The notes under the pieces are model-generated. The model saw nothing but the letters and a program-made list of their open reading frames with translations, made no database searches and was not told the origin of the DNA. Below are positions 1,024 to 61,806 of a stretch of 64,000 bases of DNA, piece after piece. This DNA is from Chrysomallon squamiferum. Taxonomy: Eukaryota > Animalia > Mollusca. The stretch covers positions 5,084,001 to 5,148,000 of the forward strand of contig CM022674.1 of the NCBI GenBank assembly GCA_012295275.1, read 5' to 3'. The position numbers were made by a program, and so were the translations under genes. Each line of letters starts with the position of its first letter. Within the stretch, counting starts at the first letter, position 1.

Positions 1024-1285
1024 GATATATATGTTGTGTGTATGTGTGTGTAGATAAACAGATAGAGATTAATTAACCAATTATTTCTTCTAAAATTTAT
1101 ACACGTACCTCAAACAGTGAACCCAAGAATTAACAAACGTTTAATCTGATGTTAATAGTTCTGATGTTTACTTTCATATATATATATATATATATATATA
1201 AACACACACACACACTATACTAATAATGACAAATTATTTATTGATTTTTTTTTTCGTTTTTTATTTTCTCTCTCCCTTGTTCCAG

Positions 1286-1518
1286 ATACATACCTCAGAT
1301 CTTAGATGACCCTGGAACTAACAAAATTCTGCAGCTGTTAATAGTGATGATCTGCAGCTCGTACATCTTCAATCCATACCTGAATGCCAAACTCGTGGAG
1401 GTGATGTTTGTCTTGCAGCCAGCTGTCCAGCCAAAAGCTGAGAAACTCAACGAAGCTTTGCTCATGAATCCTTTAGCCATTGATTTTCTGGTCCCTGCCC
1501 TTATGCAGTTCTATACAG
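1286..1518 (+). CDS. UBE4B: UBE4B/Ufd2 coding exon
   Basis: tcccttgttccag acceptor; ...NPYLNAKLVEVMF...LVPALMQFYT; donor AG|GTTAGT. Confidence 0.95.
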
Positions 1519-2018
1519 GTTAGTGAGAGGGAGAGGGAGGGGGAGAGAGAGAGAGAGAGATTGAAAAAAGAATAATGAGGACAGAGAGAGAACAAAGATT
1601 AAGAATAAGTGATATAATTTGATACTGTATAATCACTGACATTATATCGTTTTATCATATACAGTTTGAAATAAAATGTGAAACTATGGAATATATACTA
1701 AGATTGTCAAAAAATTTGAAGGTATTTTGTCACTTATCTTAGAAGTAATGGGGGGGAGGAGAGAGAGAGAAAAAATAAAGGGATTGTGTGGGAGAGATTC
1801 TGAAACTGTTAATTATAACAATAAAATAAAATAAAATAAAATAACAGTTATAATGAAACAATCAAAACCAAAGAGAATAACAATATCAGAGAGAAAACAA
1901 GAAACTTAAGCATTTTGATTCTTGAACAATTTTTTTTTTATGATTCTGCTCAGAGATTTACAAGAGTATATATATCCCAGTAAATGAGTAAAAGTGTTTT
2001 TTTGTGTGTATTGAACAG

Positions 2019-2145
2019 AAATAGAAACAACAGGAGCCAGCAGTGAGTTTTATGACAAGTTCACCATCAGGTATCATCTCAGCATCATCTTCAAGACAAT
2101 GTGGACAATTCCTGCTCACCAAATGAAACTGATTTCTGAAGCAAA
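2019..2145 (+). CDS. UBE4B: UBE4B/Ufd2 coding exon
   Basis: IETTGASSEFYDKFTIRYHLSIIFKTMW hallmark motif; donor AA|GTGAGT. Confidence 0.95.
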
Positions 2146-2188
2146 GTGAGTTTTCTTAAAAATGAGTCACAAATATAATTAAATACAT

Positions 2189-2276
<88 letters not shown>

Positions 2277-2809
2277 ATGCTTGTTTCAAAAGACAAACAA
2301 ATGTATCTGAATATGTATTAATATAATTACTCTCAAAATAAAAATATAACAAAATTTCTAGAAAATTTTAATCTAGCATGTAAATAAATAAAAATAAATT
2401 ACTTTTAAAAAAAAAAAAAAATTTAAATGACATTTTTGTTTTATTCAATATAAATTTAAGTTTATTAATATAAATTTATGGAGCCTGTGATATTTGTTAC
2501 AGTGTTTTTTGTGTGTGTGGGGTTATTATCTTTTTAAAATTTATTATTCATTTTTAAATAATCTGAATGATTATATTTCAAGCACTCAGTTCAGGAACAA
2601 TCTTTACCATTGTGGATATGACACAGATTAAACTTGTTATTGTATTGGCAAGAACTAAACTAACAAATAGTAAGTTGCTATCACATCTAAAGCAACAAAA
2701 TAAAAAAAAAATTAAAAATAAACACCAGACGGAATAATGAAGAATTTTTTGAAAAAAATTTCTTCTGTTATCTTTGAATTACCAACAAGATCTGTAAATG
2801 TTTTCGCAG

Positions 2810-2954
2810 CAAAGGGAAACAGTTTGTGAAGTTTGTCAATATGTTGATGAATGATACAACATTTCTGCTGGATGAAAGTCTCGATTGTCTTAAACGAATT
2901 CACGAAGTTCAAGAAATGATGGACAACACAGTTCAATGGGAGGCACAGACCAAA
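2810..2954 (+). CDS. UBE4B: UBE4B/Ufd2 coding exon
   Basis: [34 protein letters not shown]; acceptor ttttcgcag, donor AAA|GTGAGT. Confidence 0.95.
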
Positions 2955-3454
2955 GTGAGTGTATTGTACCCTTAATTGTTTGTGTGTCTGGTTATATTTA
3001 GTTTTATCATTATAATTTTATTTTATTTATTTTTATTTTTTTTTTTTATTTTTTTTTATTTTTTTTATTATTTATTTATTTTACTTGCTTTCTTTCTTTC
3101 TTTCTTTCTTTCCTTCCTTTTTTTTTTATTTCATTGTTTATTTATTTTTTTATTTTTTTGTTTTATTATTCTTTTTTTTACGTTTCTACATCATAAAAAT
3201 ACCAGTAGACAAACCCAAAAAAACCATGCAGCTTTCACAAATCACACCAGATGTTTTACATTATTTTAATATTAGCATACATAAGTAAGAGTGAATATAG
3301 TGAATCTTTCCGTCTGTTTCCATCTTTATTTATTTATTTATTTATTTATATATTTATTTATTTGATATTTATTTATTTATTTATTTATTTATTTGATGTT
3401 TATTTATTTATTTATTTATTTTTATTTATTTATTTATTTATTTGATATTTATTT

Positions 3455-3485
<31 letters not shown>

Positions 3486-3621
3486 GTTTATTTATTTATT
3501 TATTTATTTGATATTTATTTATTTATTTACACATTTACTTCATTGTTATTTATTTTTATATTCATTCTTTTATTCATTCATTCATTCATTCATTTATTCA
3601 TTCATTCATTTATTCATTCAG

Positions 3622-3756
3622 GAACAACAGCAGTCGCGACAGCGGCAGCTAGCTATGGACGAACGTCAGTGTCGTTCCTACCTGACACTGGCCACAGAGA
3701 CTGTCGACATGTTCCAGTATCTGACAGAGAAAATACAGCGTCCTTTTCTCACGCCA
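3622..3756 (+). CDS. UBE4B: UBE4B/Ufd2 coding exon
   Basis: [45 protein letters not shown]; phase 0-0; donor GTAAGA. Confidence 0.95.
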
Positions 3757-3804
3757 GTAAGACTTTAATACTTGAATAACTTTATTATAACAGTTATAAA
3801 CCTC

Positions 3805-4055
3805 CAGCGTTTCCTAATAATAAAGTATGACAACCAGTTTAATGTTAGAATAAGTAAATTTTTTGTTTTAAAAGTGTTTCCTAATAATAAAGTATGACAA
3901 ACAGCAAACAGTTTAATGTTAGAATAAATAAATTTCCTAATAATAAAGTATGGCAAACAGTTTAATATCAGAATAAATAAATTTTATTTTAAAAAGTATA
4001 AACTTGTGGTGTTTCCTAATAATAAAGTATGGCAAAGAATAACCAGTTTAATATT
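3805..4055. repeat. Degenerate tandem repeat with core TTTCCTAATAATAAAGTATG (~4 copies); related copies at ~9273..9402
   Basis: The core followed by cagtttaat recurs in two UBE4B introns. Confidence 0.7.
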
Positions 4056-6401
4056 TAATATCTACAAAGAAATATTATAAAAATGGCATCTTGTAGATGT
4101 CTCCTTAGAGATGTTTAAATAATTTTCTGAGTCTTATTTGTCAATATATTAAAATATTTTAATAAATAAAAAAGCAATAACAGGTATTCTTCAGTTTGTC
4201 TAATATTAGGGAGTTCACTAAAAAATTCAAAATTACTCAATTACATTTGAAGCAGGACCTCAAAAGAAACAATTAGCACTTTGAATTTTTTGAACTGGAT
4301 ACATAGTTTATGAGCTGTGTCAAATCAAAGATGCTAAAATGCCCAGAAAAAGTGAGCCAGTAATTATGTTACATCTTGAAACAAATGTGGCACCAGAAAT
4401 AAAAATTTTTTGCTGTTCTTGTACATTTATGTTTCTAGTTTCAACAATTTATATCCAGTTTTAGTCAAATTTTGCATTCTATTAAAACAGACACTACGAA
4501 AGTCAACTATCAACATTTTATTATCCAATGTAATGACCTCAACCTTATTTAAATATAATATAGACCATCTCTCAGCAACATAAATAATTATGTATTGTAT
4601 AGAGTATAAAGTATACTAAATATTATCTCTGATTTTAATAATTAAAAATGTAACAATATAAAACCAGTAGACAAATGAATTGTTTCCAGCCCCTGTAAGT
4701 AAAGTGCAATTATCAACCCAACACCCCTAAAAAATATGGAATAAATTTGCCAGCCACTTTGAAAGAGCAACAGAGTGTTCCATTATAGTATGTAAGGGGG
4801 TTAATATTTTTATAAATTACACCAAAATTTTATTAAATATCAAAAAATTATTTATACATAAAATAAATAGCATTAAACAAAATTAGATTTTGCATTTGTA
4901 AACCATCAGTTATTACATAATGGCATTTAATCATTGTCTGAATTATACAAGTTATTTTCACCACTGCAGATGAAAAATCTGCCATTTTAATATTTTTTCA
5001 CCGTGTGTTCATTATATCGATTCAAATACTTTGCAAGTACTGTTTCAGCTCAACATTATTTTGATCTAGATCTAATATACACTTGTTCAGAAGATATTTT
5101 TTTACATAACAGGAATAGTGATATCATTTTAATTACATTTTATTCTAGGAAAATTTTGTTTTTTCTTTCTTCGAGTGATTTCAGGTTAAAAATAACACTG
5201 ATCTTATTTTTGCTATGATCACGGAATGCAGACAGTATTTTCCTTCAAAACGAATGCTCATTGGTTTATTTCTATGGATGGGCTGAAGGCATAATCATTT
5301 GTTGAAGTGAACGATTTCTTGGCCAAAAAAAAAAAGAAAAAAAAAGAATGCTTGTGTCGATTAACTCACTGTTTTATTTGTTTTATACATCTAAAACACA
5401 GTATTAATAACACAACACAATTACGGTATTATATTTTAATGACAATTTAACAACACTTTTGTTCATTTCTGTAAATAATATTAAAGCTCAGTATGTACAA
5501 TTTGAATTGAAAATGGTGAGCTGTTATTGGTTAAAACAAATGGAATTCGCGCAATGTCATCTGGGTTTAGCGAACTCCATGATAATGCTAACTGACAGCG
5601 CATCTCCAGGCAATCGAAAACATATATCTTTTCATATAACTGCTCAAAACAAATTAAATAAATGCTAAATATAAAATAAATGATTAAATGAAGTATCTTA
5701 GTGTAAATGGTGAATGCATGCCTATCAGCACCAGCTGCTTCAGTGAAATGAAATTATAAATTTAAAAAATATAAAATGTTAATTAAAAAAAAATTCTATT
5801 TTTGTCTTTTCTAAACAAGATTATACACCATTAGTGTCAATCATTTTTTGCATACACATGCACACACACACACACACATACACACACATTTACATGTATA
5901 TAGAAAGAGAGAATTGACATTTAAAGAAAACAATGTTTGACAGACAGACAGACAATCGGATAAATTAACAGACAAATGTATCTTAATATTTATTACTGTA
6001 ATTATATTTGCATTAATAGGAAACTCTAGAAAATTTTGATCTATCATATTAATAATAATTAAATAAATTTATTTACTTATATAATCATTTTGTTTACTTA
6101 TTTATTTTTTTGTATTTTTGTTTTTGTATTTATCATTGAGTCATTTTATTTTTTAATAAATTAATTAATTAATTTATTTATTTATTTACTTATTTATTCA
6201 TTTTTTTATTTTTTTATTCATCATTGAGTCATTTTATTTTTTAATTAATTAATTAATTTATTTATTCAGTTCTTTCTTTCTTTCTTTATTTATTTTTGTA
6301 TTTATCATTGAGTCTTTTTATTTTTTAATTAATAAATTTATTTATTTACTTTCTTATTCATTATCACTGTATTGTACTGAAACATTTTGAACAACTTTCA
6401 G

Positions 6402-6593
6402 GAACTTGCCACTCGTCTAGCGGCCATGTTGAACTTCAATCTGCAGCAGCTCTGTGGCTCGAAGTGTAAAAACCTCAAAGTTAAGAACCCAGAGAAGTAT
6501 GGGTGGGAACCCCGCAAACTGCTAAACAGTCTCACAGATATTTATCTTCATTTGCACTGTGACGATTTCGCTATGGCCATTGCCAGCGATGAG
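6402..6593 (+). CDS. UBE4B: UBE4B/Ufd2 coding exon
   Basis: [41 protein letters not shown]...AIASDE; donor GAG|GTAACA. Confidence 0.95.
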
Positions 6594-7229
6594 GTAACAG
6601 TGCACAAGAATTATGTTATGTGATGATGTCTGTGTTCAGTTTGCATTGATTTTCATAAAGCACCTAGTTAGATGTAATTGAAGATTCAGAAACTGTTTGT
6701 CTGTTGTTTGTTTTTTATTTATTTATTTATTTATTGTTTGTTTGTTTGTTACTTGTTTATTTATTTATTTATTTTGTTTGTTGATTTATTGATTGATTGG
6801 TTTGTTTGTTTATTCATTCATTTGTTATTTGTTTATTTATTTATTTATTGTTTTATTGTTTGTTTGTTACTTATTTATTTATTATTTTGTTATTTATTTA
6901 CTTGTTTGTTGTTTGTTTGTTTTTATTATTCTGTTATTTATTAACTTGTTTGTTGATTTATTGATTGATTGGTTTAATTGTTTATTCATTTTTATTTATT
7001 TATTTATTTATTTATTTATTACTTGTTTTACTTGTTTTACATATTTATTAACTTATTTACTTATCATTTATATAAACACAAACACACACACACACTCACA
7101 AACACACACACACACTCACAAACACACAATCAGACACACACACACACACACACACAGACAATCAGACACACACACACACACATATATATATACATTTACT
7201 TATTTAGTTATCATTTGTCCAATTTCCAG

Positions 7230-7404
7230 CGATCGTACAAAAAGGATTTGTTCGATGATGCTTTGTCTCGTATGACGAAGGCTCGCATCAAAACTGAGTC
7301 AGAGATTCTGCAGTTTGTGGCCCTGCAGAACCAGGTGGAGAAAATAGTTAAGCAGAGAAATCAAGCTGAGCTGGACTATGGTGACATCCCAGACGATTTT
7401 AAAG
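7230..7404 (+). CDS. UBE4B: UBE4B/Ufd2 coding exon
   Basis: RSYKKDLF...AELDYGDIPDDFK; acceptor aatttccag, donor AAG|GTAACA. Confidence 0.95.
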
Positions 7405-8459
7405 GTAACAGAAAGTGAAAACCTGGCACCATTGGGGTGCTAGAAGACATCAAATGTAGGCACTGTGTTTCGTTGGGGAAAAAAAAAAAAGCAGTAAATT
7501 AAAGTTTAAGATATAGAGGGAATTAGTATTGTATATATAAAAAAATATATAAAAATTGTTTTAATAATCTCCTGAAACACACATATATTTTCAAAGAAAG
7601 TAGCAAATTTTAAAAATTTTAAAACAATAAATAAATAGGTATTTTGTATTGTAATGAAAAAAAAAATAATTAAAAATTAAAAAATTAAAAATTAAAAAAA
7701 GGAGGTATTTTGTATTGTAATGAAAAAAAAAATAAGAATACAAAATTAAAAAAAAAAAGAAAGAAAAAGAAATGTCACCATAAAACAACATGATCACTCT
7801 TATAAACACATTTTCAGTTTATATTATCTAAATATTGTTGGGTTTTTTTAAACGAAAAAAAAATAAAGCTAAGAACCTTTTTGAAATAAAAAGTATTAAA
7901 TTCATATTTAAAGCATCCTTCCAAGTTATTATGTTATTGTTTTAGATGACATAATTATCATTCAGTATGAGAGTAAAATAAAATTGTTATAAATTATTAG
8001 AAATTCTGCCATTTTATCCCTTATCAATTATATCAAACCTTCTGTGTCAGATAGCTAACTTGTTTTATTCTAACAGAATTAGAAAAATCTTTAAAGTGAT
8101 GTGACAGGTCTGTATACACTGATGTCGCAGCCACAGAAAAATGGTGACACACTGACATTTTAAAACTGTGAACTCTTTTGTCACTGTACTTTGTTATTAA
8201 TTAAAACTGTATGAAAAGTAAAACAACCAAAAAGAACAAAATAACAATAACAACAAATAAAATACAGCATGGGACGTTTTTGCAGAAACCATTTTCCACT
8301 GTTTCTTTCTATTAGTAACGGTTACGCTTTAAGACATCTCATAGGTTACATACATTATTTTGCATTTCGTGGGGATTACTTAATTAATGGAACGAATCTT
8401 GAGTTAAACAAAACAAATAAACAAATAAAAGAATGATAATTAGAATAATTACTTTGGTC

Positions 8460-8625
8460 TGCAAGTCTGGTGGGTTTCAGGATCAGTCCTGCTCGGATTG
8501 CCTGCCAGAGGATTTTTTTTCCCTCTCTACCTTTCTTTGTTAAAGGTTGCAGCAAGTGTTTTTTCTGTCTATGGGAGAGTAATATAAAAAAACATCCTTT
8601 GCTGCTAATTGGTAAGAGTAAACTA
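8460..8625 (+). mobile_element. Degenerate SINE-like interspersed repeat fragment (related pieces near 12170..12345, 12720..12830, 14425..14500)
   Basis: CTGTCTATGGGAG...TTGC(T/A)GCTAA is shared between ~8566 and ~14441. Resemblance to a molluscan tRNA-derived SINE core is from memory, not from a search. Confidence 0.35.
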
Positions 8626-8728
8626 TTTTCTTTGATGTCTAGAGTCACTGTTAATTCAAGTTTCCATTTAAAAAAAAAAAAAAAGGGGGGGTTTAATTTT
8701 ATTTCAATTTTAATTTTTATTGATTCAG

Positions 8729-8878
8729 ATGCTCTTATGTACACATTAATGGAAGACCCAGTTTTGCTGCCACCTAGTGGCCAAATCATGGATCGACCAA
8801 TCATCATGCGACATCTGTTGAACTCTCAGACTGATCCATTCAACAGGCAGCCCTTGAAAGAAGAGGAGTTAGTTCCAG
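8729..8878 (+). CDS. UBE4B: UBE4B/Ufd2 U-box exon
   Basis: [50 protein letters not shown] is a U-box domain; phase 1-1. Confidence 0.95.
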
Positions 8879-9475
8879 GTTTGTAGGAGCAGTTTCGTAT
8901 TTTCAGGTTTAAAATGTGTTTTTTTTTATTTTTTTATTTTCAGGTTTTAATCAGGTGTTTTGCATTTCCAGATTTTGAGCAGTGGTTTTGTATAAACAGC
9001 TTTTAAGCAGCCATTTTGTATTTCTAGGTTTTAAACAGTTTATTTTGTTTTATTTTATTTTGTTTCGTTTTGTTTTGTTTTGTTTTATTTTGTTTTATTA
9101 TTTTATTTTATTTTATTATTTTATTTTATTTTATTTTATTTTGTTATTTCATTATTTTATATTGTTTTATTATTTTATTATTTTATCATAATTTTAGAGG
9201 AATAATGTCCTATCATTGTTATCGCTCGCTCTTGGTCAAAACAAAACATCTTAACATGCTATATCTCTTTTGTTAATAATAAAATACGGCAAACAGTGAC
9301 CAGTTTAATATTTGAATAACTAAATTTTATTTTTAATAATATAAACTTCCAACTTTTCCTAATAATAAAGTATGGCAAATGATAAGCATTTAATATCAGA
9401 ATGCACCATGATAAGAATTTTTTTTGTAGAATGGCGGTGTTTATTCATTCCTGGTTGTTAATTCACTTCCTTTTA

Positions 9476-17947: not shown

Positions 17948-18870
17948 GTAAAATACATTTAAATTTTATTTCGAAATCACAATTTTACTTAAAAGAGCGA
18001 GCGCTAATATCTGTCTAAATAACAAAATGTTCTTGAAGACGAGCTAAAGACAAAAGAATTCGCATGGCATGCAGTGATTATTTGTATCTGTGCAGATATA
18101 AAGCGCATTGTCCAGGAGAGTTCTGAAACGGATAAAAGTCCCACCATCCCTTGCTCTCCCCGCTGAGAAATCGGCTCCAACTTTCTCCTAGGTCGACGAG
18201 TAATATTCGATTCAACTATCTCATTCTTTTGGTATTGATGTTCGCTTCCGAACACACACGAACTGGTAAATTCCACCGTCCGACAACGTCCGAAATTGGG
18301 CGAACAGCGGATTCGACCTTCGCTGACTTCCGGGTTAAACAAAATGGGCCAACAAAAAACAACCTGGAGATGAATTGTCTTGACATGCAACATGGAATTG
18401 GAGTGCAAATCTGCTTCAACCAATTACACTGTGTAAGTTCCGTGTATTTTAATCTTTGTTTTAGATATCTTTGTGTTTAAATGTTTCGGTAAGAAAGGTT
18501 TCCGATGATTATATAACCGCGTCGTGCGAACTTCAAGGCGCTATAAAAAGAAGCTAACAAATGAATACATGTGTATGTATATTCGTGATATAAGTTGTTC
18601 GATTTGATATTAAGTATACTCTTCGCCATCTGTTTCTTCTCAGAAAAGATGTATACACCTTGGAATCAATATTAATGGCGCTATCAAATGTTTATATGTT
18701 GCGAAACAAATCGAACTTTGAATTTATCAGAAAAATCATAGGCATTGTCACAAACGATTTTTACATTACCCATGGCGATCATAACGAGTTTTTTTTCCGC
18801 TTCTTCCATTCTTTTATAGTTATATTGCGAAAATTAAAAACCAAAAGTTGTGTAACCGTTAGTCGATAAC
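16720..18870 (+). promoter_or_regulatory. CpG-rich promoter region, probably of the zinc-finger gene
   Basis: CpG is sharply enriched over the flanks. Motifs: TGACGTAA (CRE-like, ~16760), TTCCCGC (E2F-like, 17354..17360), ACTTCCGG (ETS, 18326..18333). Splice donors AG|GTACGT (16926/7) and GT|GTAAGT (18432/3). Confidence 0.7.
18392..18432 (+). CDS. Probable first coding exon of the C2H2 zinc-finger gene (MELECKSASTNYTV)
   Basis: ATG in strong context CAACATGG; donor GTAAGT in phase 2, matching the phase-2 acceptor at 46741 (GT|G = Val, then EEIPESH...). Confidence 0.55.
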
Positions 18871-46549: not shown

Positions 46550-46740
46550 CTGAAGATATTTTTATTTTGAGTTAACTAGGTTATGTGTTGAACTGCCATA
46601 GCTACTGCTGTTGGCGAAAAATATTTTTACTTTTGAAAGATTATGGAGGACTTTATATGTACTATGTGGCAGCAGGATTCCGATCCGTATTTTTTAAATT
46701 TCAAACTTTTCCTAACCTACTGGTTAATGTCATCCAACAG

Positions 46741-46855
46741 GGAGGAGATACCTGAGTCACATCTACAGGAACAGATGTCTTTGCCAACGTTACCACACCC
46801 CCCTCTGCCCATGGCTGCTGCTATATCAGCACTGCAGCAGCAGCACCAACAACAA

Positions 46856-46911
<56 letters not shown>

Positions 46912-47135
46912 GCACCAACAGCAACAGCAGCCACCACAGATACCTGCAACGTCTTCAGCAGGATCACCTGAAAAGTCGCACCTGTGTTCGGTGTGCCTGA
47001 AGGGCTTCAGGAGTAAACAACAGTTAAATCAACACAGCTTGGTGCATTCTGGGATACGTAAACACGACTGTGCTTACTGTGACAAGTCGTTCAAGCAACT
47101 TTCTCATCTGCAACAACACATTCGGATACACACAG
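46741..47135 (+). CDS. C2H2 ZF gene (LIN-29/rotund/ZNF362/ZNF384-like) exon A: polyQ plus fingers 1-2
   Basis: Branch point CCTAAC at 46711, acceptor ccaacag; Q3HQ22HQ5; CSVC...SKQQLNQH...H and CAYC...KQLSHLQQHIRIHT; donor AG|GTTTGC, phase 1. Confidence 0.9.
46835..46930 (+). repeat. Coding CAG/CAA polyglutamine tract (Q3-H-Q22-H-Q5)
   Basis: Counted from the sequence, in frame within exon A. Confidence 0.95.
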
Positions 47136-47447
47136 GTTTGCTATGTTACTACTACTACTCATTGTGTCGTTGTTGCCAGTGTTGTTGTTGTCGTTGTCGT
47201 TATCGTTATCGTTACGTTGACGTTATGTTGTTACGTTGTCGGTATTGTCAGTTATTACTAATGTTATTATTATTATTATTATTATTCTTCTTATTATTAT
47301 TAATCTTATTGTTATTTTTATTATTATTCTTATTATTATTAATAATAGTGTCATTATTAATATTTTTATTATTACTATTATTGTTATTAATATTATTATT
47401 GTTATTATTATTATAAATAGTGTCATTATTAATATTCTTATTCTTCC

Positions 47448-47490
<43 letters not shown>

Positions 47491-47685
47491 AGTGTTATTA
47501 TTAATATTATTATTATTATTATTTGCGTAGATTATGCTTTGGTGTGGGAATTTATATATTGTGTATGAGCGTGAATATAGCTGGGTGTGTGTGTGTGTGT
47601 GTGGGTGTGTGTCTGTATGTATGTATGTATGAAGATAAATTGACAGGTACAGGTCTGTATTCAGTTAGGCATAGGTATTTGTAGA

Positions 47686-47727
<42 letters not shown>

Positions 47728-47977
47728 AGTTTGTGTAGATAGGTAGGTGACTGGGTATATGTGTGTGTGTGTTTGTGTGTTTTTTTGTTCTTGTATGTGT
47801 GAATATGTATTGGTTTGAAAAGTGAAATAAATTAACTAAATCATAGTTTTGATTAGAGAAATTAACTAAAACTGAGTTAGTTTCTGAGTTTTGAAATGAA
47901 TGAATAAATGTCTGAATTGACTGAGTGAAAGAATAAAGAATTAGTGCATTGTACAAATAAATTAATTAAATATATGT

Positions 47978-48010
<33 letters not shown>

Positions 48011-48017
48011 CATATAT

Positions 48018-48055
<38 letters not shown>

Positions 48056-48400
48056 TGACATATAGGTTTAACTTTTTTTATGTATGTTGATGTATGACTT
48101 GTTGTGTATGTATTTTTAAACGCAGATAGATTGGTAAATAATATTATGGGTTTTTTAATACTCTACTACTAAAATAAATGATTAAATTACTATTTATTTA
48201 TTAATTTTTTTTTTTTTTTCACAATTAAATTAAAAACATCCATCCATCCATTTATTCCGACAGTCTGTCATACTGTTAAAATATACCATTCGGTTTTTAT
48301 TGTTCATACTTGTAGAAAAAAGCATGGAACTTAGAATCATCAGTAAAAATTATTAAATTGTTTTCAGATATAATGAGATGATGCATTTATGTCATTACAG

Positions 48401-48441
<41 letters not shown>

Positions 48442-48955
48442 ATTTTAAATTAAATTTGCATTTTGTTATTTTTTTTTTTTCAATTAAAGCTGAAGAATAT
48501 TGATTTGTCAGAAACATTGTATTTTTATTTTGTTATTTTTTTATATTTATATTTATTTTTATTTCAGTATTATTATTATTACTTTTTTATAAAAACATTC
48601 TAATTTTTTTTATCCATCATTAATTTATCTTATGCTTCATGAAAAGTATTGAAAATTAGAAAAAAGAAAAAAAGAGTGAAAAATAAAATAAAAAATAAAT
48701 TAAAATTTTTAAAAAATTTTAAATTAATAAAGTAGAATAAATTAAAAAGTAAAATAACATAAAACTTGTAAAAAAAATATAAATTAAAAAAAAAAAAGAA
48801 AAAAAAAATATGAAAATAATAAATGAAAATGTAATAGAAAATATATAAAAAGTCAAATTAAATGAAATACATAAAAATAATTTATAGCATGAATAAAATT
48901 TAAAAATATAGATATAAATATCAAAACATTTAACAAAAAGACAAAGAATTAAAAA

Positions 48956-48991
<36 letters not shown>

Positions 48992-49282
48992 AGTAGTAGT
49001 AATAGTAATAACAGTTTAAGTAGGACAATTAAAATTAATAATGATTAAAAAAAAATCATTAATTAATTAAAAACGGAATTAAAAAAAAAATATTAATAAA
49101 ATTATATGTGTTTTTCTTGATCTAAAAATAATTATAACATGCATGTTGAGGTTTTTATTATTATTTTTTCTTTCATTTTTTGATATTTGGCTAGTGGGCA
49201 AGTCATATGAAGTGCAGTAATCAATAAAACTGTAACGTGCTTATCACACACAGATTTTTATTACAAATTTTATTTTTTGACT

Positions 49283-49317
<35 letters not shown>

Positions 49318-49518
49318 TTCAGCTAAGAGCAGAATTGTTTATTATCTCCAGCTGTAAATAGTGTTCTGGGACAGTTATCTGCTCCTTCTACTGGACATAT
49401 GCACTGCATAATATTCTCTGTGTCTTTCTGTTTGTGTGTCTGTGTGTGTGTGTGTGCATGCTTGTGTGTATATAAATGCACATACATATGTATATAAACA
49501 CATTACATATATACACAT

Positions 49519-49555
<37 letters not shown>

Positions 49556-49900
49556 AAGCATACAAATACACACCCTAACATATGCACATATGTACATACA
49601 CACACACATATACACATACACACAGCAAATACACATACTCATGATTCAGATACACACACGATACAGACACACACACACAAACACATATGTACACACACAC
49701 ACACAAATTACACACACAGCAAATACATATACTCATAATTCAGATGCACACTCAATATAGATACATACAGAAATATATATAATCAAAAAAACACACACAC
49801 AACAAATACACATACTTATAATTGAGAGATACACACACAATACAGATACATACACAAACAGAAACACGGGGAGTAAATACACATGAAGACACACATAATT

Positions 49901-49940
<40 letters not shown>

Positions 49941-50089
49941 ATACATACACAATCACACGTGTGATTCATACTTAGGTATACACACATAATATGCACATTA
50001 TACATACACATATGAAAATATACATACACATATGAAGCATATATACACATATATACATATATACAGTAATAAATATGTGTATATATATA

Positions 50090-50120
<31 letters not shown>

Positions 50121-51635
50121 GTGTGTATATATATATATATATATTTTATATACATACACACTCACATACGATACACACATATATTTACACACACAAACAC
50201 ACATCACAGACAGACAGACACATTTACGCACAAACAGAATCAGATCATCCCGACATTCATACCACACTCTGTCCATCCGCCATTAATTAAAACACTTTCT
50301 TTTTTTCCTTCAGTATAATTTCACTCTCCGTATTTTTGAATTCTGTAATAAAAAGAAGACTTGTCACGCTGACCCAGATTTTATGTGTTGCATAAAAATC
50401 TCCGAAGAACTATTAAATGCATTTTTATTTTTATTTCTTTAATTTTTGTATAAATTTTTATCTTCTGATCTCTAATTTGACGACTCCCATTTCTGTCGTT
50501 GGCACTTTTAAGAAAAGGTCACAACGACCATCTCCCAGTGAATCATTTATTGTTGGCTTCTCATTTTTATTTTATTATTATTATTATTTTATTTTTTTTC
50601 GTTGTTGTTGTTTTAAATTAAAATAAAAAATAATGAAAGGGAGAAAAAAATATAAAAAATACAACCTTAATATATATTTTTTTTTTTTTTAGAAAATCAC
50701 TTTTGTTAAGATTTTTTAAAAATATTATTGCTGTTTTCATTTATTAAGGTTATCATGACCAGTGTGTTTGATTTGTTATTTTGTTATTGTTATTACTGAC
50801 GTTATTATTCATTTATTGTTATTATGATTATTATTGTTATTATTGTTGTTATTATTAATGTTTTTATTTATTTATTAACTTTATTATTATTATTATTCTG
50901 ATATTAAAAATTAAGTATAAATGATTTTTATATTTTTGTTATTAATTTTTTATATTTTTATTTATTATGATGATTATTATTTTTACAATTAGCTGTCAAA
51001 AATTTAAAAAAAAAGAAAATAAAGTATTGTAGTTTTGTCATCTTCATCATCTTTATTATTATTATATTTTTTTTTAATAATTAATTTTTTTTTTCTAATT
51101 TAATTTTAATTTCATTTTTAGTATTATGTTATTATTATGATTATTTCATTTGTATTTTATTTATTTTTTATTTAAAATTTTAAAAAAAATAAAATTAGGT
51201 CTTGTTGACATTTATTTTTGATGCGTCATGTCATCACATTTATGGAGGATTTAATTAAATTATCTCTGTAATCTATTGGTTTTTGTATTTCTAATTTATA
51301 TGAGAGAAAATGAAACAAGCTTCATCAATTGTTCTAATTAATATATTTAGTAGTAGTAAATATGGTAATATACAGTAATACCATAATAAATATAAAAATA
51401 AGAAAAAGAATATAAGAATAAATGTTGTAGGAAAACATAACTAGTAATAATGTGATGATATTAATGATGTGACAAAACAATATTAATAATAACAGTAATA
51501 GTAATAAATAGAACTAAGAATAAAATAAATAAAGTAATAAATTGCTATGATGATAATAATGACAGCAAGAACATCAATAATAATAATAAAAGACCACACA
51601 ATAGCAATAAGTGTGTGAACAATGTAAGCAACAGT

Positions 51636-51669
<34 letters not shown>

Positions 51670-51805
51670 GATAATAATAAAAAAGATATGACAAAAAAAA
51701 ATATTAAAATAAAAATACTAGCAGCAACAGCAATAATAATAATAATAAATAAAAATAACACTTAAATGCAAAAATAATAATGATTATGATTATTATTATT
51801 ATTAA

Positions 51806-51875
<70 letters not shown>

Positions 51876-52791
51876 TTAAAAGGAAGTCATTCCTCTTTTC
51901 ATAATACGATGGAACTAATGCATGAATCATTACAATGGAACAGAATATTTTTGAATTAAAAAAAACCCACAAGATTTTCAAAAATGTATCATTTAATCAT
52001 TTAAAACGTCAATTAAATGTGAAATTTGCAAACTGCTTGTATTTATAATAATGTGTCTTTGTGCCCATCTACCTTACCTCAGCATTACTTGCACATTTCT
52101 ACGACCATTCGTAAAAGGACAGAATTAAATTTCTACAACTAAATTATGTAATTGATAATGATGTTGTTTAACACGTATGCCAGCTAGAATAAAAATAGAA
52201 GATGATAATTATATAAACACTAAATGATTATTTTAATTTTAAATAAATTACACACATATTTATATATATTACTGGCATACTTGTATGAATCTTCGTGAAA
52301 GAACAACTGTTTTAAATTTTATGAATGGAAATGTTTCTACAACTATAAATAAATCAGAATTCGTATGGGCAGCATTAGAAAGAAGAAGTGATAATGAAAT
52401 TGTTAAGTAATTGTTGTAGAAAACGAAAAGAGCAGAAAATTAGAAATTGGAAAATGTTAAAACTATTTTTATCTCGAGAAATGCCAATTATAACTGACAT
52501 CGGTATTGTGAGAAACATATGATAATAGTGAGTATGACTGCCTTTAAATTCAAAACTTACAAAGTAAATGCATTAAAATAGATAACAAGTTTTGCAAAAG
52601 TTTAATAAGATGAATACATGTCAATTAAAATAGGTAACAAATATACATAGTGATTGTCTTTAAGTGTAAAAACGTATGAAGTTGAAAATAAAAATAAAAT
52701 TATAAATTAAAAGGTTGCCAGACTGATTCTCTTTAATATTTAATATTGTTGCCTGAAATTAGTAAAAACACATTCAATTTAAGTAATAATA

Positions 52792-52862
<71 letters not shown>

Positions 52863-53375
52863 TGATGATGATGACACTAATAATAATAACAATAATAATA
52901 ATGACAATAATAATAATAACAATAATAATAATAATAAAAAACATTGAAATAACCTCATTGTTATTTAAAACATTGTTTGGCTTTGGTTTTTATTTTTATT
53001 TTTTTTTTTTTTTAAATTTTAAAATCTGTAAGAATGAACATTTTTATACATATAATTGTATTCTAGAACTGAAGGTAAGGGTTTTGTCGGTATGTCTTTG
53101 TGTATGTATGTGGTTGTTCTGTTTGTATAGTTAGACATGGAATTTGTATGTTCGCACTGATGTGTGTTTTGATTTGTTAATGTTATTTACATCTCACATT
53201 TAATCTTAGAAAACACAGAATTACCATTAATTTTAATTTTATTTGTCCTCAAGGCAGAGTAGGAATAATTATATGTAATATAATATATTATATTTTTAAT
53301 ATTACAGATTTCATTTTAATTAGTTATTGTTTGATTAATTTATGTGTTTATTTATTTATTTATTTATTAATGTTA

Positions 53376-53418
<43 letters not shown>

Positions 53419-54160
53419 GTTGCTTATATTGTTGCAGTTAGAAATTTGGCAATAATTCTAATTAAAAAAGAAAAAAAATGTCTACCCATTACATATTATA
53501 ACTGTTGCTTGTACATGTTGTTATTAAATACTTTTGGGGTGCACCCCCCTTGGGCTTTGAAAGAGAAGGTGGGTAGTGTTTGCAGGAAAGGAATGTTTCA
53601 TTGAGCAGAAATGAGCCAGATCCACAGAAAACAGTTCTTTTCAGATTTCTTTTAATTTAGAAAAGAAAAAAGAAAAAAAAAATAAAAATTGAATGAAAAA
53701 AATAGCTACAAAAATTTGAAGACGAAAGAATAAAAACAAGACACTGTTTGAACAGTAACAATTTATTTATTTATTTATTTATTTACTTATTTATTTATTG
53801 ATGAACTTATTTATTTGCTTAATTTAATTGGTAGTATAGAGAGAGAGACAAAATGGCTAACGGAAAAGAATTATTTCCTCTTATAATAAAAAATTGCTGC
53901 ACGTTAATAAAAGATTTATTGTTGCTGTTTGAAAAGAGTATCTCACGTCTTGTTCTAGTCCATGAGTTAACTGTTGGGAAAGAACAGCTTGTGAAGGAAT
54001 TAAAAGTACAAAAAAGAAATTAACTGTTTGAAAAAGAATAGGTTGTGTCAGTACAGCTCTCATGAACATTGTTTAAAAAAAAGAAAAGAATATTTGCTGC
54101 TGTTAAATGAATCTTTTAGTGTTTAATTTTTATTTATTTTTTTTTATTTTTTAATTATTT

Positions 54161-54191
<31 letters not shown>

Positions 54192-54361
54192 TAAAAAAAT
54201 ATTGTATATAACCATGAGAAAATAAATACATAACTGTCTATGGAACAATTGCTGTAAATGAAAATCATTAAAAGACAGACACACACACACACAAAAATAG
54301 ATAATGATTCATCGAACTGGTAAAAATACTGATAGAACAATGTACTTGGAAGTTTCTGAAA

Positions 54362-54421
<60 letters not shown>

Positions 54422-54618
54422 GAGTAATAAAAAGAAACTTAAAAAATGGAGCATTCCTTTCCAGAACTGAGCTTCTTTTCTTCTATGTTTTTCACCAATG
54501 CTGCTGTATAATTTAATTACAAGCTTTTGTAGGCTATGCATTTTGATGTTGTATAATGCAAATAATATATATATATACATATATATATATTTTAAAAGTA
54601 TATAATCTATATATAAAA

Positions 54619-54649
<31 letters not shown>

Positions 54650-54788
54650 GAAAGCAAAAAAAAAAAGAAAAAATAAGTAAAATAAAACAACGAACTCAGA
54701 CAGAACAAACAATTATTAAAACAAGTTTTAATTTATAAAATTTAAGATTTAAATCGTAAAACTGACCAGCAACCATCCTTGTCGACAG

Positions 54789-54965
54789 GCACCCCTTCCG
54801 AAAAGGGCCACATTTGTCCCACGTGCCTAAAAGGGTTTAGGAGCAAACCACAGTTGAACCAACACAACCTGGTGCATTCTGGGATACGAAAACACGAGTG
54901 TCCTTATTGCGACAAATGTTTCAAACAGCTGTCCCACCTTCAGCAACATGTACGGATTCACACAG
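54789..54965 (+). CDS. C2H2 ZF gene exon B: duplicated finger pair, 177 nt, symmetric phase 1-1
   Basis: Branch-like ACTGAC at 54761, acceptor ccttgtcgacag (54788); TPSEKGHICPTCLKGFRSKPQLNQHNLVHSGIRKHECPYCDKCFKQLSHLQQHVRIHT; donor AG|GTAGGG. Other possible acceptors are at 54746 and 54769. Confidence 0.85.
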
Positions 54966-55330
54966 GTAGGGGCATGTGATTTTGGAGAAGGAAAGAAAAA
55001 AAAGAAAAGAAAAGAAATGATTCTAAGTATTAGAAAAAATATATAGATAAATAAATATAGTGGATTTGTTTCACAAACTGTTATATCTGTGTGTGTGTGA
55101 CTTGGTAATGGAGAAAATGAAATTTAAAGAAAATGAGAAAACGAAAAAGGAGGATGGAAATTTGAGAATCGTTTTATGGTTGTTGTTTTTTTAAACTTTT
55201 TATAAGGATATTTGAAAGGGATAATTATTTTAGAACTGGTTTCAAGGAAAATTATGGAATTTAGAATTATTGTTGTTAATAAAATTTTTATTTTTTTTAT
55301 AGAATATAATTTTTTTTTAAATTTTATTAC

Positions 55331-55361
<31 letters not shown>

Positions 55362-55378
55362 GATTATTATTATTATTT

Positions 55379-55410
<32 letters not shown>

Positions 55411-56479
55411 TTATTGTTTCTTCTTTTTTTTTTATTTTATTATTTGGTCTAAGATATTTAAGGTTATATTTAAAAAAAAAAAAAGAAAAACCTACCATTC
55501 AACATAGATATTATAGATATATTAATTAAGGTCCAGTTTTTGGGGTGCACCCCATCAATTAGGTGTATGGATAAAACGGTTAATGAATTAATATAATAAT
55601 GATAAGCTAGTAGTGAACAGAAATAAATAAAATTTAATAACTGCAGATTTAACCAGTTTGGCTGTTTTAGATTTAACATGAGTAGCATCTGAAATCTTAT
55701 TTTCAGTAAGGCATGGCAGCACATACCAAAATGATTGATATACATTATTTATTTATTTATTTGTTTATTTATTTATTATATATATATATATATTTTTTAT
55801 AACAAAGATATCTGAAATTTTTGAGAATTAAAGAAAATCTATATTGAAAATAATACTATTTCGGTATTTATTTTATTTTATTTCTTTTGATTTTATTTAT
55901 TTATTTATTTATATATAAATAAGACTTTAACTGAATAGATGATGAAGGCAGAGATATATAAGATCACTTTCTCATTTCAAACATACCTCTAAATATACAA
56001 GCACGTCTGTCATGGGCAATTAAATGAGGAGGCTAATTATTTTAGTGTTAATATGTTACACACCTTACAGTGGACAGGAAAACACAAAGCATTACCTTTG
56101 ATTAAATTGGTAACAGAGCACTTGTCGGATCTGGATAAAAACCGATACTAGTGCTGCCTCATCTGTAGTTATTTTATTTACTGATTTGTTTTAATGTATT
56201 TGTGTTCATGCTAACAAATTCTGTGAAAATGTGGGAACGGGACAGCTGATCAATCCATATTTCTTTGTGTTAAGTTGTTGTCAAACTTTATTGTCAGAAA
56301 AGATTGTTTGCCAGTTGTAAACAAATTATATGCTCTGTTTCCTTGTTATTTTATTGTCATACTTTTGTAGTTAGCAAAGATTTTTTTTTTTTTTGATAAG
56401 TAAATTCCTGCAGTTATGTTTTCTTGTGCTTTTTTGGTGTTATTGTCAACTTTATTATTAGCAAATGTTGTTTTCATTA

Positions 56480-57915
56480 TACATAATTCCATCATTTATG
56501 TTTTCTTGTGGGTTGTTAGTATATTGTCATACTTTGTAATTAGTAAAGTTTGTTCTTATTTTAAATCGTTCCATCATTTATGTTTTCTTATGTGTAGTTA
56601 TGTTATTGTCATACTTTGTAATTAGTAAAGATTGTTCTCATTTTCAATCATTCCATCATTTATGTTTTCTTGTGGGTAGTTATGTTATTGTCATACTTTG
56701 TAATTAGTAAAGATTGTTCTCATTTTAAATCATTCCATCATTTATGTTTTCTTGTGGGTAGATATACTGTCATACTTTGTAATTAGTAAAGTTTGTTCTC
56801 ATTTTAAATCATTCCATCATTTATGTTTTCTTGTGGGTAGTTATGTTGTTGTCATACTTTGTAATTAGTAAAGTTTGATTTTTAAATAATTTCATCATTT
56901 ATGTTTTCTTGTGGGTTGTTATGTTGTTGTCATACTTTGTAATTAGTAAAGTTTGTTCTCATTTTAAATCATTCCATCATTTATGTTTTCTTGTGGGTAG
57001 TTACGTTATTGTCATACTTTGTAATTAGTAAAGATTGTGTTCATTTTAAATAATTTCATCATTTATGTTTTCTTGTGAGTAGTTACGTTATTGTCATACT
57101 TTGTAATTGGTAAAGTTTGATTTTTAAATAATTTCATCATTTATGTTTTTTTTGTGGGTTGTTATATTATTGTCATACTTTGTAATTAGTAAAGATTGTT
57201 TTCATTTTAAATAATTTCATCATTTATGTTTTCTTGTGGGTAGTTATGTTGGTGTCATACTTTGTAATTAGTAAAGTTTGTTTTAAATAATTTCATCATT
57301 TATGTTTTCTTGTGGGTTGTTATATTATTGTCATACTTTGTAATTAGTAAAGTTTGTTCTCATTTTAAATAATTTCATCATTTATGTTTTATTGTGGGTT
57401 ATTATGTTGTTGTCATACTTTGTAATTAGTAAAGTTTGTTTTAAATAATTTCATCATTTATGTTTTCTTGTGGGTTGTTATATTATTGTCATACTTTGTA
57501 ATTAGTAAAGTTTGTTCTCATTTTAAATAATTTCATCATTTATGTTTTCTTGTGGGTTGTTATATTATTGTCATACTTTGTAATTAGTAAAGTTTGTTCT
57601 CATTTTAAATAATTTCATCATTTATGTTTTCTTGTGGGTAGTTATGTTATTGTCATACTTTGTAATTAGTAAAGATTATTTTCATTTTAAATAATTTCAT
57701 CATTTATGTTTTCTTGTGGGTAGATACACTGTCATACTTTGTAATTTGTAAAGTTTGTTTTAAATAATTTCATCATTTATGTTTTCTTGTGGGTAGTTAC
57801 ACTGTCTTACTTTGTAATTTGTAAAGTTTGTTCTCATTTTAAATGATTTCATCATTTATGTTTTCTTGTGGGCTATTAGTATAATGTCATACTTTATAAT
57901 TAGCCAAGTTTGTTC
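56480..57915. repeat. ~77-82-bp tandem array, about 18 copies, between exons B and C
   Basis: Unit CATCATTTATGTTTTCTTGTGGGT...TGTCATACTTTGTAATTAGTAAAG... is directly visible. Confidence 0.95.
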
Positions 57916-58169
57916 TTTGTTTCGATGAATTTTGGTATGGTTTGTTGGCATAAATACAGGTATATTTAATCCAGAAAGAAATAAAATAATTAACTATATG
58001 AACCACAGTTTACATTTAGACTGTCTAGTGTACCCAGTAGTTGAGTGATGATGTAAAAGCATAGGAGATATTTCATTCTTTATAAAGCACATAGACAAAG
58101 AAACAAAAGATGCAAGCCCACCCTACGAAAAATAGACAATTTGATTTGTTAGATTTAAACGAAACATAA

Positions 58170-58221
<52 letters not shown>

Positions 58222-58355
58222 ATTGATATTACAGACAATATATTTTGCATTTTTACAGATATTATTAACCATATAATCTATAGCTTACAACATCTCATTT
58301 TTTTTTTTTTTTTTTTACTAAAGTGTTTACTTTGTTTTGTTTTGTTGTTAAATAG

Positions 58356-58540
58356 GAGAAAAGCCGTACAAGTGCGCCATCGATGGATGTGACCGGGCGT
58401 TTGCGCAGCTGTCGAACCTGCACCATCACCTGCGTAACCACGACGACCAGGTGAAAAAGGCGGAGACGCGACTGTACAAGTGTGTGATTTGTCATCGAAG
58501 CTACACAAACGACAGCAGTTTAAAAACACACACGTTGAAG
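58356..58540 (+). CDS. C2H2 ZF gene exon C (missed by the ORF track on the + strand)
   Basis: Acceptor ttgttaaatag, phase 1: GEKPYKCAIDGCDRAFAQLSNLHHHLRNHDDQVKKAETRLYKCVICHRSYTNDSSLKTHTLK; donor AAG|GTGAGC. It completes the TGEKPY linker with exon A or B. Confidence 0.95.
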
Positions 58541-60822: not shown

Positions 60823-61806
60823 ATGCACATCCACATAAAGCCCATTGACATCCTGGCTGAGATGAACCGAGGCGGGCAGCCACGCCCGGACAAACAGAAG
60901 TTCTTCGGCAACTCAACCCTCCAGTCCGACCCGGGGGCCGCTGAATCCCTGCTCCTCCCCCAGGTGCTCGGCCTGCAGAAGACGGGGGGCGGGCTGGGGG
61001 ACTTCCAGCCGGGCCGCATGTCGCAGGTGTCCAGCCTCGACCGCGGCATCGTGCGCGTGCCCAGCGTCAGCGCGTGCCAGAAGGTGATCCGCGAGGAGTG
61101 CATCGAGCTCGATGAGAACGGCGACGTCATCAACGTCACCGTCGACCACCGGAAGCTGTCGCACGGCGCCGGCGACATCGTCCAGAACCACCACCACAAC
61201 AACAGCAGCGGCGGCAGCAGCAGCAGCAACAACAAGAACTGCGACAGCCAGTCGGCGAACGACAAGGGAGGCAACGGCGTCGCGATGCGGTCGAGCATCA
61301 TGTCATCACCCGTCGCGTCGCCGCCGGTCGCGTCGTCGCGCGAGAACCACCTCTCGCAGCTGCAGCATCAACAACAGCAGCAGCAGCAGCAGCAGCACGG
61401 AGGCGTCCAGTCGTCCCCGCCCGACAACAAAGGGATGAGGTCGCACCCGCACTCGACATCGTCTTCGGCAATGACGTCATCGGTCGGAGGCCTCCACGGC
61501 ACCGACAGCATCGCGACGTCGTCGCAGAACAGCCGCTTCACGTACCTCGACCAGCACGGGGTCGTTCCTGAGTCCTACCTGATGTCGATGGACGCCACGC
61601 TGAGGAGGAACGCTTTTCCCATTCCGCTCGGCAGGGGCTCGGTCGGCATGGAGCACCTCCCGACTGTCTCCTCTCACCAGCCCCTCGACGGGCACGACTT
61701 CTACGGGGCCCACCTGCCCCGCCTTCCTCTGACGAGTCACATGCATCTGTCGAGCGCCTCGGCCAGGATGGTTGAGTCGAGGACCTTCACGACGCTTGGG
61801 AATTGA
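60823..61806 (+). CDS. C2H2 ZF gene terminal exon D: last His of the final finger plus a long low-complexity S/Q/H-rich tail
   Basis: Acceptor atttattttcag|ATG, phase 0, giving HTLK|MH; 327 open codons with strong GC3 bias; TGA at 61804..61806. Confidence 0.9.
   Translation: MHIHIKPIDILAEMNRGGQPRPDKQKFFGNSTLQSDPGAAESLLLPQVLGLQKTGGGLGDFQPGRMSQVSSLDRGIVRVPSVSACQKVIREECIELDENGDVINVTVDHRKLSHGAGDIVQNHHHNNSSGGSSSSNNKNCDSQSANDKGGNGVAMRSSIMSSPVASPPVASSRENHLSQLQHQQQQQQQQQHGGVQSSPPDNKGMRSHPHSTSSSAMTSSVGGLHGTDSIATSSQNSRFTYLDQHGVVPESYLMSMDATLRRNAFPIPLGRGSVGMEHLPTVSSHQPLDGHDFYGAHLPRLPLTSHMHLSSASARMVESRTFTTLGN

Follow-up and report, generated by a model that had tools for sequence, protein, structure and literature searches.

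The 64,000-nucleotide stretch of Chrysomallon squamiferum DNA analysed here (GenBank assembly GCA_012295275.1, contig CM022674.1, positions 5,084,001 to 5,148,000 of the forward strand; hereafter the window, numbered from its first letter) carries a C2H2 zinc-finger transcription factor gene in which two exons, A and B, encode the same pair of fingers. The sequence indicates that fingers 1 and 2 of exon A were duplicated in tandem long ago to give exon B, which is held under purifying selection, and assembled RNA contains B both included and skipped. The favoured explanation, which is regarded as probable, is that this yields six- and four-finger proteins, both directed to the same A-rich kind of site but at different length or strength.

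The likeness of the two exons had been described in an original prediction made from the DNA letters alone, and its figures were reproduced. Between EK and HT, 45 of 55 residues are identical while 21 of those 45 codons differ synonymously (nucleotide identity 77%), the Cys/His ligands of all fingers are intact, and both exons end ACAG|GT in phase 1, exon B being 177 nt long and phase 1-1. The base-contacting positions differ, as predicted for the recognition helices, only at +2 of finger 1 (Q in A, P in B), the contact residues at -1/+2/+3/+6 being SQQQ QSHQ in A and SPQQ QSHQ in B. The flanking introns had been said to share no visible similarity, and a BLASTN comparison of 1.5 kb of flanking intron gave short matches only (best 101 nt at 74%); because these lie within or close to simple repeats or stretches rich in A/T, the introns are taken to lack homologous similarity. 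By the Nei-Gojobori method pS is 0.745 and pN 0.10, giving a dN/dS of about 0.03 with a dS of 3.8, a rough value with pS near saturation. The proposal of purifying selection on an old duplication is borne out by this ratio, by the retention of the B copy in Gigantopelta and by the rejection of a species-specific duplication (see below). A hidden Markov model built from 51 mollusc fingers detected the known fingers of the window and no others, whether intact copies, remnants or degenerate exons in introns. The idea that the acceptor of exon B is itself a remnant of exon A coding sequence proved unsupported, with scores as good in 958 of 2000 shuffles and at 169 of the 829 other sites.

The age of the duplication was approached through related proteins. 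A protein search with exon B gave 29 proteins, all molluscan or from unnamed sources, the nearest named one being that of Gigantopelta aegis (91% on B). Its two RefSeq models, X1 and X2, both encode six fingers and differ only at the N-terminus, and their second copy shares with that of the window its Pro at +2, the linker being stretched in the same way. Across the two genera 46 of 52 residues are identical between the A copies and 47 of 52 between the B copies, against 42/52 and 41/52 between A and B within species; four diagnostic columns group the sequences by copy and none by species. A tree was computed from 18 rows of the 52-residue finger pair, seven of the 25 aligned rows, long branches included, having been left out. 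A species-specific duplication, with A and B of the window together, was rejected (approximately unbiased test, p-AU 0.006); the branch joining B of the window to B of Gigantopelta had values of 86/80 and no star, and a clade uniting the four A and B copies was neither shown nor rejected (p 0.25). According to a passage of PMC7895826, other peltospirid genera split from G. aegis about 40 and 116 million years ago, dates which likely give the scale of the age of the duplication. Four fingers are found throughout the nine full-length models from Haliotis, the three from Patella and the bivalve models that were examined, so four is taken as the ancestral state. Pro at +2 of finger 1 is also found in four-finger orthologues of freshwater mussels (P0067, P0068), which argues that it arose there independently and that the first finger tolerates it.

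Evidence for splicing came from four RNA runs of one study (X1 to X4) and a fifth data set of unrecorded kind (X5), all as assembled contigs, which were queried with the finger part of exon A (X1 to X4) and with exon B (X1, X2, X4 and X5). Absence of cover is not evidence in such data: X4 gave no match to the exon A query although its contig contains exon A. Run X3 has one 1789-nt contig with the path A-B-C (depth 22.8), and X4 a corresponding contig of 1839 nt (depth 14). In run X2 the body of exon A continues into two branch contigs, one joining A to B (55 nt, depth 4) and the other A to C (52 nt, depth 7.9), both of the length expected for k=31, and a further contig of 204 nt joins B to C (depth 10.8). 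The mixed consensus at the loose end of exon A in X2 is reproduced at 25 of 25 positions by the starts of B and C (agreement 0.72), and the skip partner at 58357 is the sole matching 22-mer on either strand of the window. The letters of the skip contig are those of the window (99+ alike on A). The contigs of X1, X2 and X3 cease to match the window at 47136, marking the donor of exon A, and the start of exon C is found after B in X2, X3 and X4 and after A in X2. Thus A is joined to B in three of the four RNA runs and to C in one of the three with exon A contigs, where the skip is the deeper of the two paths. Depth ratios in X2 would put inclusion at 34-58%, a rough figure as contig depth tracks level poorly. 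X1 has exon A contigs and none on exon B, which again is absence of cover, and X5 runs through B into the intron at either end; an intron-B contig (depth 3.95) was present in X2, and intron contigs of about 3.5 depth lie downstream of B in X4. The paths assembled differ between runs, and contigs give no levels.

Both junction types are therefore present in RNA and the 177 nt of exon B keep the frame, so that exon B is probably a cassette exon; being spliced in, it is no pseudo-exon. Of the junctions on which the original prediction turned, 47135-54789 and 54965-58356 were found in X2, X3 and X4, and 47135-58356 in X2 only. The case it had named against itself, that B is never spliced in, is contradicted by three of the four RNA runs. 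It had left open whether B is a cassette or is mutually exclusive with A: the cassette is the likely form, with the skip in one run, and mutual exclusion falls, A being joined to B in three runs. Mutual exclusion was rejected also on the grounds that the 5' phases of the two exons differ (A begins in phase 2, B in phase 1) and that the E1-B-C-D product loses the reading frame and meets a stop at codon 31; together with the A-B joins, this rules it out for transcripts led by the upstream exon E1.

The exons are collected in the table below. The predicted positions of exons A, B and C were upheld, all three having AG/GT ends, whereas finger 4 was found to extend beyond them, its last His lying in exon D; E1 and the alternative N-terminus had been overlooked. 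E1 was located by tBLASTn with the N-terminus of Gigantopelta RefSeq model X2 (11/16 identical, E 3e-6), and exon D is 57% identical to the Gigantopelta C-terminus (E 9e-111) and without a family in a Pfam scan. The predicted reading frames of both splice forms were open on recomputation; E1-A-B-C-D would encode 593 residues with six fingers and E1-A-C-D 534 residues with four. With B included, the linker is stretched to 10 residues from 7. In the 18 positions examined at each acceptor, B has 4 T, A 6, C 12 and D 14, and the T-poor acceptor of B fits a skippable exon. The alternative N-terminus matches that of Gigantopelta RefSeq model X1; its short hydrophobic peptide motif recurs in 23 of the proteins retrieved, which came from gastropods, bivalves and unnamed sources, a Pfam scan gave no family above cut-off, and the peptide may be a cofactor-binding motif of one isoform. 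The finger array is flanked on both sides by poly-glutamine tracts (46834-46931, about 30 codons, and 61356-61397, about 14 codons), the first being much shorter in Gigantopelta.

Table. Exons and coding features of the zinc-finger gene (positions in the window)
Feature	Position	Strand	Description
E1, upstream coding exon (3' part)	18392..18432	+	phase-2 donor GT|GTAAGT, in frame with exon A; true start may lie further upstream
Alternative in-frame N-terminus	46643..46740	+	open reading frame within the intron adjoining exon A, overlapping the acceptor of A; encodes a conserved peptide
Exon A	46741..47135	+	395 nt, phase 2 to phase 1, borders CAG| ... ACAG|GT; Pro/Gln-rich stretch and fingers 1 and 2 (finger pair at 46970-47134)
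Exon B	54789..54965	+	177 nt, phase 1-1; duplicated finger pair; probable cassette exon with T-poor acceptor
Exon C	58356..58540	+	185 nt, phase 1 to phase 0; finger 3 and most of finger 4
Exon D, terminal coding exon	60823..61806	+	last His of finger 4, 327-residue low-complexity tail and stop codon

The fingers form a classical C2H2 array (PF00096; 37 bits for A, 43.6 for B and 40 for C against a cut-off of 25.2). In a structure search of an atlas with the abalone orthologue, ZNF384, ZNF362 or rotund clusters made up 8 of the 10 rows (ZNF384/ZNF362 6/10), while the feature search gave generic C2H2 clusters only; RefSeq and GenBank label the orthologues squeeze, ZNF384-like, ZNF362 or lin-29-like. 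The four-finger core is 46-54% identical to both modules of a tick two-module protein, P0221, which belongs to the rotund/squeeze/dati/LIN-29 group and which, from its two modules, we take to be dati-like. This was the only useful group member among the best 120 of 303 proteins listed, the rest being nearly all many-finger proteins, and a motif scan found no members among the 150 proteins of a further set; the PDB matches listed contained none. P0221 and the snail gene have the finger-2 and finger-3 contact codes QSHQ and QSN- in common, but the snail gene has one module where the tick protein has two. Module 2 outscored module 1 in 7/7 queries (147-150 against 116-124 bits), and the four-finger cores align to it without gaps, the long linker between fingers 3 and 4 included. 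By these comparisons the gene is a member of the ZFAM4 group (rotund/squeeze/dati/LIN-29/ZNF384), and probably of the second-module type. The earlier assignment to a LIN-29/ZNF384 type thus stands as group membership, on the structure clusters and the identity to P0221, and is no more than tentative as one-to-one orthology, the core fitting module 2 of P0221 better.

The eight-finger form of ZNF384 has a two-finger exon that is duplicated and optional, in a position comparable to that of B. Among the models seen, however, B is found only in the window species and Gigantopelta, and so was not inherited from a cassette shared by vertebrates and molluscs. ZFAM4 is described in a passage of PMC2889900 as comprising ZNF384, ZNF362, the Drosophila datilografo gene CG2052, rotund, squeeze and LIN-29, most members having five or six fingers; the mollusc form has four ancestrally and reaches six by duplication, and its count is thus unlike that of the group in origin. 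Passages elsewhere call LIN-29 an orthologue of ZNF362/384 (PMC6312707) or give rotund, not dati, as its orthologue (PMC4188565). The isoforms of rotund, lin-29 and schistosome znf362, as far as described in passages of PMC2889900 and PMC12965309, differ at the N-terminus and have their fingers in common, whereas the putative snail isoforms vary in their fingers. In ZNF384/CIZ/Nmp4, of the same C2H2 group, finger number varies between isoforms: in passages on these proteins, CIZ has five to eight fingers and the site (G/C)AAAAA (PMC2213105), and isoform 2 has six fingers, ZNF384 being described as binding homopolymeric dA.dT and its fingers T-rich single-stranded DNA and DNA ends as well (PMC8589989). 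Schistosome ZNF362.1 is stated to bind AAAAAA (in part of PMC12965309). The substitutions of tandem duplicated exons treated in part of PMC8373072 are alike in their origin by tandem exon duplication and in their long conservation; there, however, the homologous exons substitute for each other, while B of the snail is inserted in frame beside the original. ZNF384 does not occur in the main text of that paper, nor ZNF384 or ZNF362 in the one supplementary file searched, and no finger-skipping exon is described in passages of PMC3586390 and PMC8579251. A search of the open-access literature found nothing published on the mollusc gene or on its cassette.

These comparisons allow a mechanism to be proposed. 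The weak acceptor of B would let the spliceosome skip it, so that A-C would give the ancestral four-finger protein and A-B-C the six-finger protein. Because the contact residues of A and B are near-identical, inclusion would repeat the code and add no new one, and the fingers of B would extend the A-rich site with its motif unchanged. The +2 position of a C2H2 finger normally couples it to the subsite of its neighbour; the longer linker and the Pro at +2 would then make the front finger pair a loosely hinged add-on. By analogy with the relatives, the six-finger form may read a longer A-rich site or bind it more tightly, a suggestion given slightly less than an even chance.

Several points weigh against two isoforms that differ in their sites. 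The A-C junction is a single contig of 52 nt; 30 of its letters fall on A and the other 22 on C, below the 31-letter bar for a bridge, and the identity of its C part is deduced from the mixed consensus. All four RNA runs come from one study and only one contains the skip; X3 and X4 show the A-B-C path only, and in X1 exon A runs back into itself, with no B contig. Each of the two Gigantopelta models includes B, and none with four fingers was found for that genus. The preference for A-tracts is borrowed from relatives, on which the predicted DNA binding of the snail protein as a whole rests, and the first and fourth fingers of these relatives have other contact residues (tick module 1 compared with the snail gene). 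The splicing data and the Gigantopelta models would also suit an exon B that is in effect constitutive, with the six-finger protein as sole functional product and A-C as leaky splicing or an assembly by-product. This is judged unlikely, since the A-C path of X2 is the deeper one and uses exact splice sites in frame, contigs drop minor paths and those of X3 and X4 thus cannot show absence, and the T-poor acceptor and the restoration by skipping of the four-finger form of abalone, limpet and bivalve models speak against an obligate exon. The confinement of the skip to one sample would also follow if the A-C RNA came from a deletion allele, on a chromosome without B, or from another copy of the gene with four fingers; the match of the skip contig to the window on both A and C (25/25 in the deconvolution), the reading of X5 through B with flanking intron, and the conservation of B between genera make this very improbable.

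The homology of the tandem exons, their common donor context and the intron-B contig of X2 might be read as mutual exclusion or as a pseudo-exon, but with A-B joined in three of four runs, the early stop of E1-B, and the intron contigs downstream of B in X4, next to which the intron-B contig fits an unspliced background, either is barely credible. A further explanation accepts both isoforms and leaves site length unchanged, the extra fingers serving stability, RNA or protein contacts, or a trade-off with circularisation of exon A. It is somewhat doubtful, though it can draw on the stretched linker and Pro at +2, which may uncouple the arrays, on the binding of ZNF384 fingers to T-rich single-stranded DNA and DNA ends noted in part of PMC8589989, and on the deep back-spliced contig of exon A in X1. 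The contact positions of B are, however, copied from A and conserved between genera, which points to selection on the DNA-reading surface, and the fingers added in other snails keep the code. The cassette with two forms reading one kind of A-rich site remains the preferred reading.

Extra fingers at the same junction, HT|GEKPY, are found in other gastropods (Pomacea, Babylonia, Littorina, Nucella, Bradybaena, Biomphalaria and Aplysia), with 4-11 fingers per model; the counts are from annotation models, whose RNA support was not part of the analysis. Isoform pairs that differ purely by the insertion of one finger occur in Pomacea (X1/X3) and Babylonia (X1/X3), and the same insertion is seen in Littorina (GenBank against RefSeq X2) and Bradybaena (25911/25912). 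Four fingers are present in Biomphalaria X13, as many as eleven in Bradybaena models and seven in Nucella, whose array contains a two-finger copy of its own. Unlike B, the additions are mostly single finger-2-like ones, a two-finger duplicate being present only in Nucella; this one is independent, as a clade joining it to B of the window and of Gigantopelta was rejected (p-AU 0.009). In the 17 mollusc models tabulated, every inserted single finger has Q at -1, H at +3 and Q or K at +6. The same intron thus appears to be a repeated insertion point for fingers in gastropods. Up to seven extra single fingers lie at the junction in models of Bradybaena (P0004, P0007, P0035), Candidula (P0006, P0008) and Biomphalaria (P0054). 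The subsets of extra fingers differ from model to model in these land and freshwater snails, with a Biomphalaria isoform numbered as high as X13, and in Candidula two incomplete models, each on its own contig, have the appearance of paralogues.

In run X1 the donor of exon A (47135) is joined exactly to its own acceptor (46741) in a contig of depth 88.4, which suggests a 395-nt single-exon circular RNA. This contig stops 30 bases into A, as expected if it merges there with the E1-A path, and no other path out of A is present among the contigs of X1; the back-splice was seen in one of the three runs with exon A contigs. Read from its first ATG, the circle has a frame that stops after 206 residues. 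Among the 25 longest of 3506 inverted-repeat pairs, no pairing repeats around exon A that would explain the back-splice were found, only TTA/TAA microsatellites in the A-B intron. These complementary microsatellites (47252-47533 and 52776-52977, 5.3 kb apart) could pair, so that most of the intron would be looped out, or their pairing may be chance, such repeats being common in the window.

A broader and speculative interpretation, judged rather unlikely, joins these observations: a gastropod hotspot intron gaining independent optional fingers with the same contact code, convergence on ZNF384/CIZ, splicing as a ruler of A-tracts, and circularisation of exon A as an off state. Its evolutionary details, similarly tentative, would be one two-finger copy in the vent snails, another in Nucella, and single-finger cassettes giving up to 11 fingers in land snails. 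If this were true, splicing would set the length of A-tract needed or the strength of the grip. That CIZ/ZNF384 isoforms vary in finger number is known, and in the literature passages on these proteins its effect on target choice is not addressed; what is new here is an independent, RNA-supported and repeatedly evolved case of a principle already known. The gene offers a natural series of 4, 5, 6, 7 and 11 fingers, in which near-identical fingers have been added time and again at a single junction, and this makes it a clean system for asking whether finger number sets A-tract length or affinity. It is also a clear example of exon duplication arising convergently in a developmental regulator that is conserved.

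Two further features of the window lie outside the exons. The B-C intron contains an 82-bp tandem repeat (56343-57916; 19.5 copies, 86% matches), which could affect B-C splicing or vary between individuals. Upstream of the zinc-finger gene, on the + strand, are the 3' exons of a UBE4/Ufd2-type ubiquitin ligase gene (1245-8886), with matches to Ufd2P_core and U-box.

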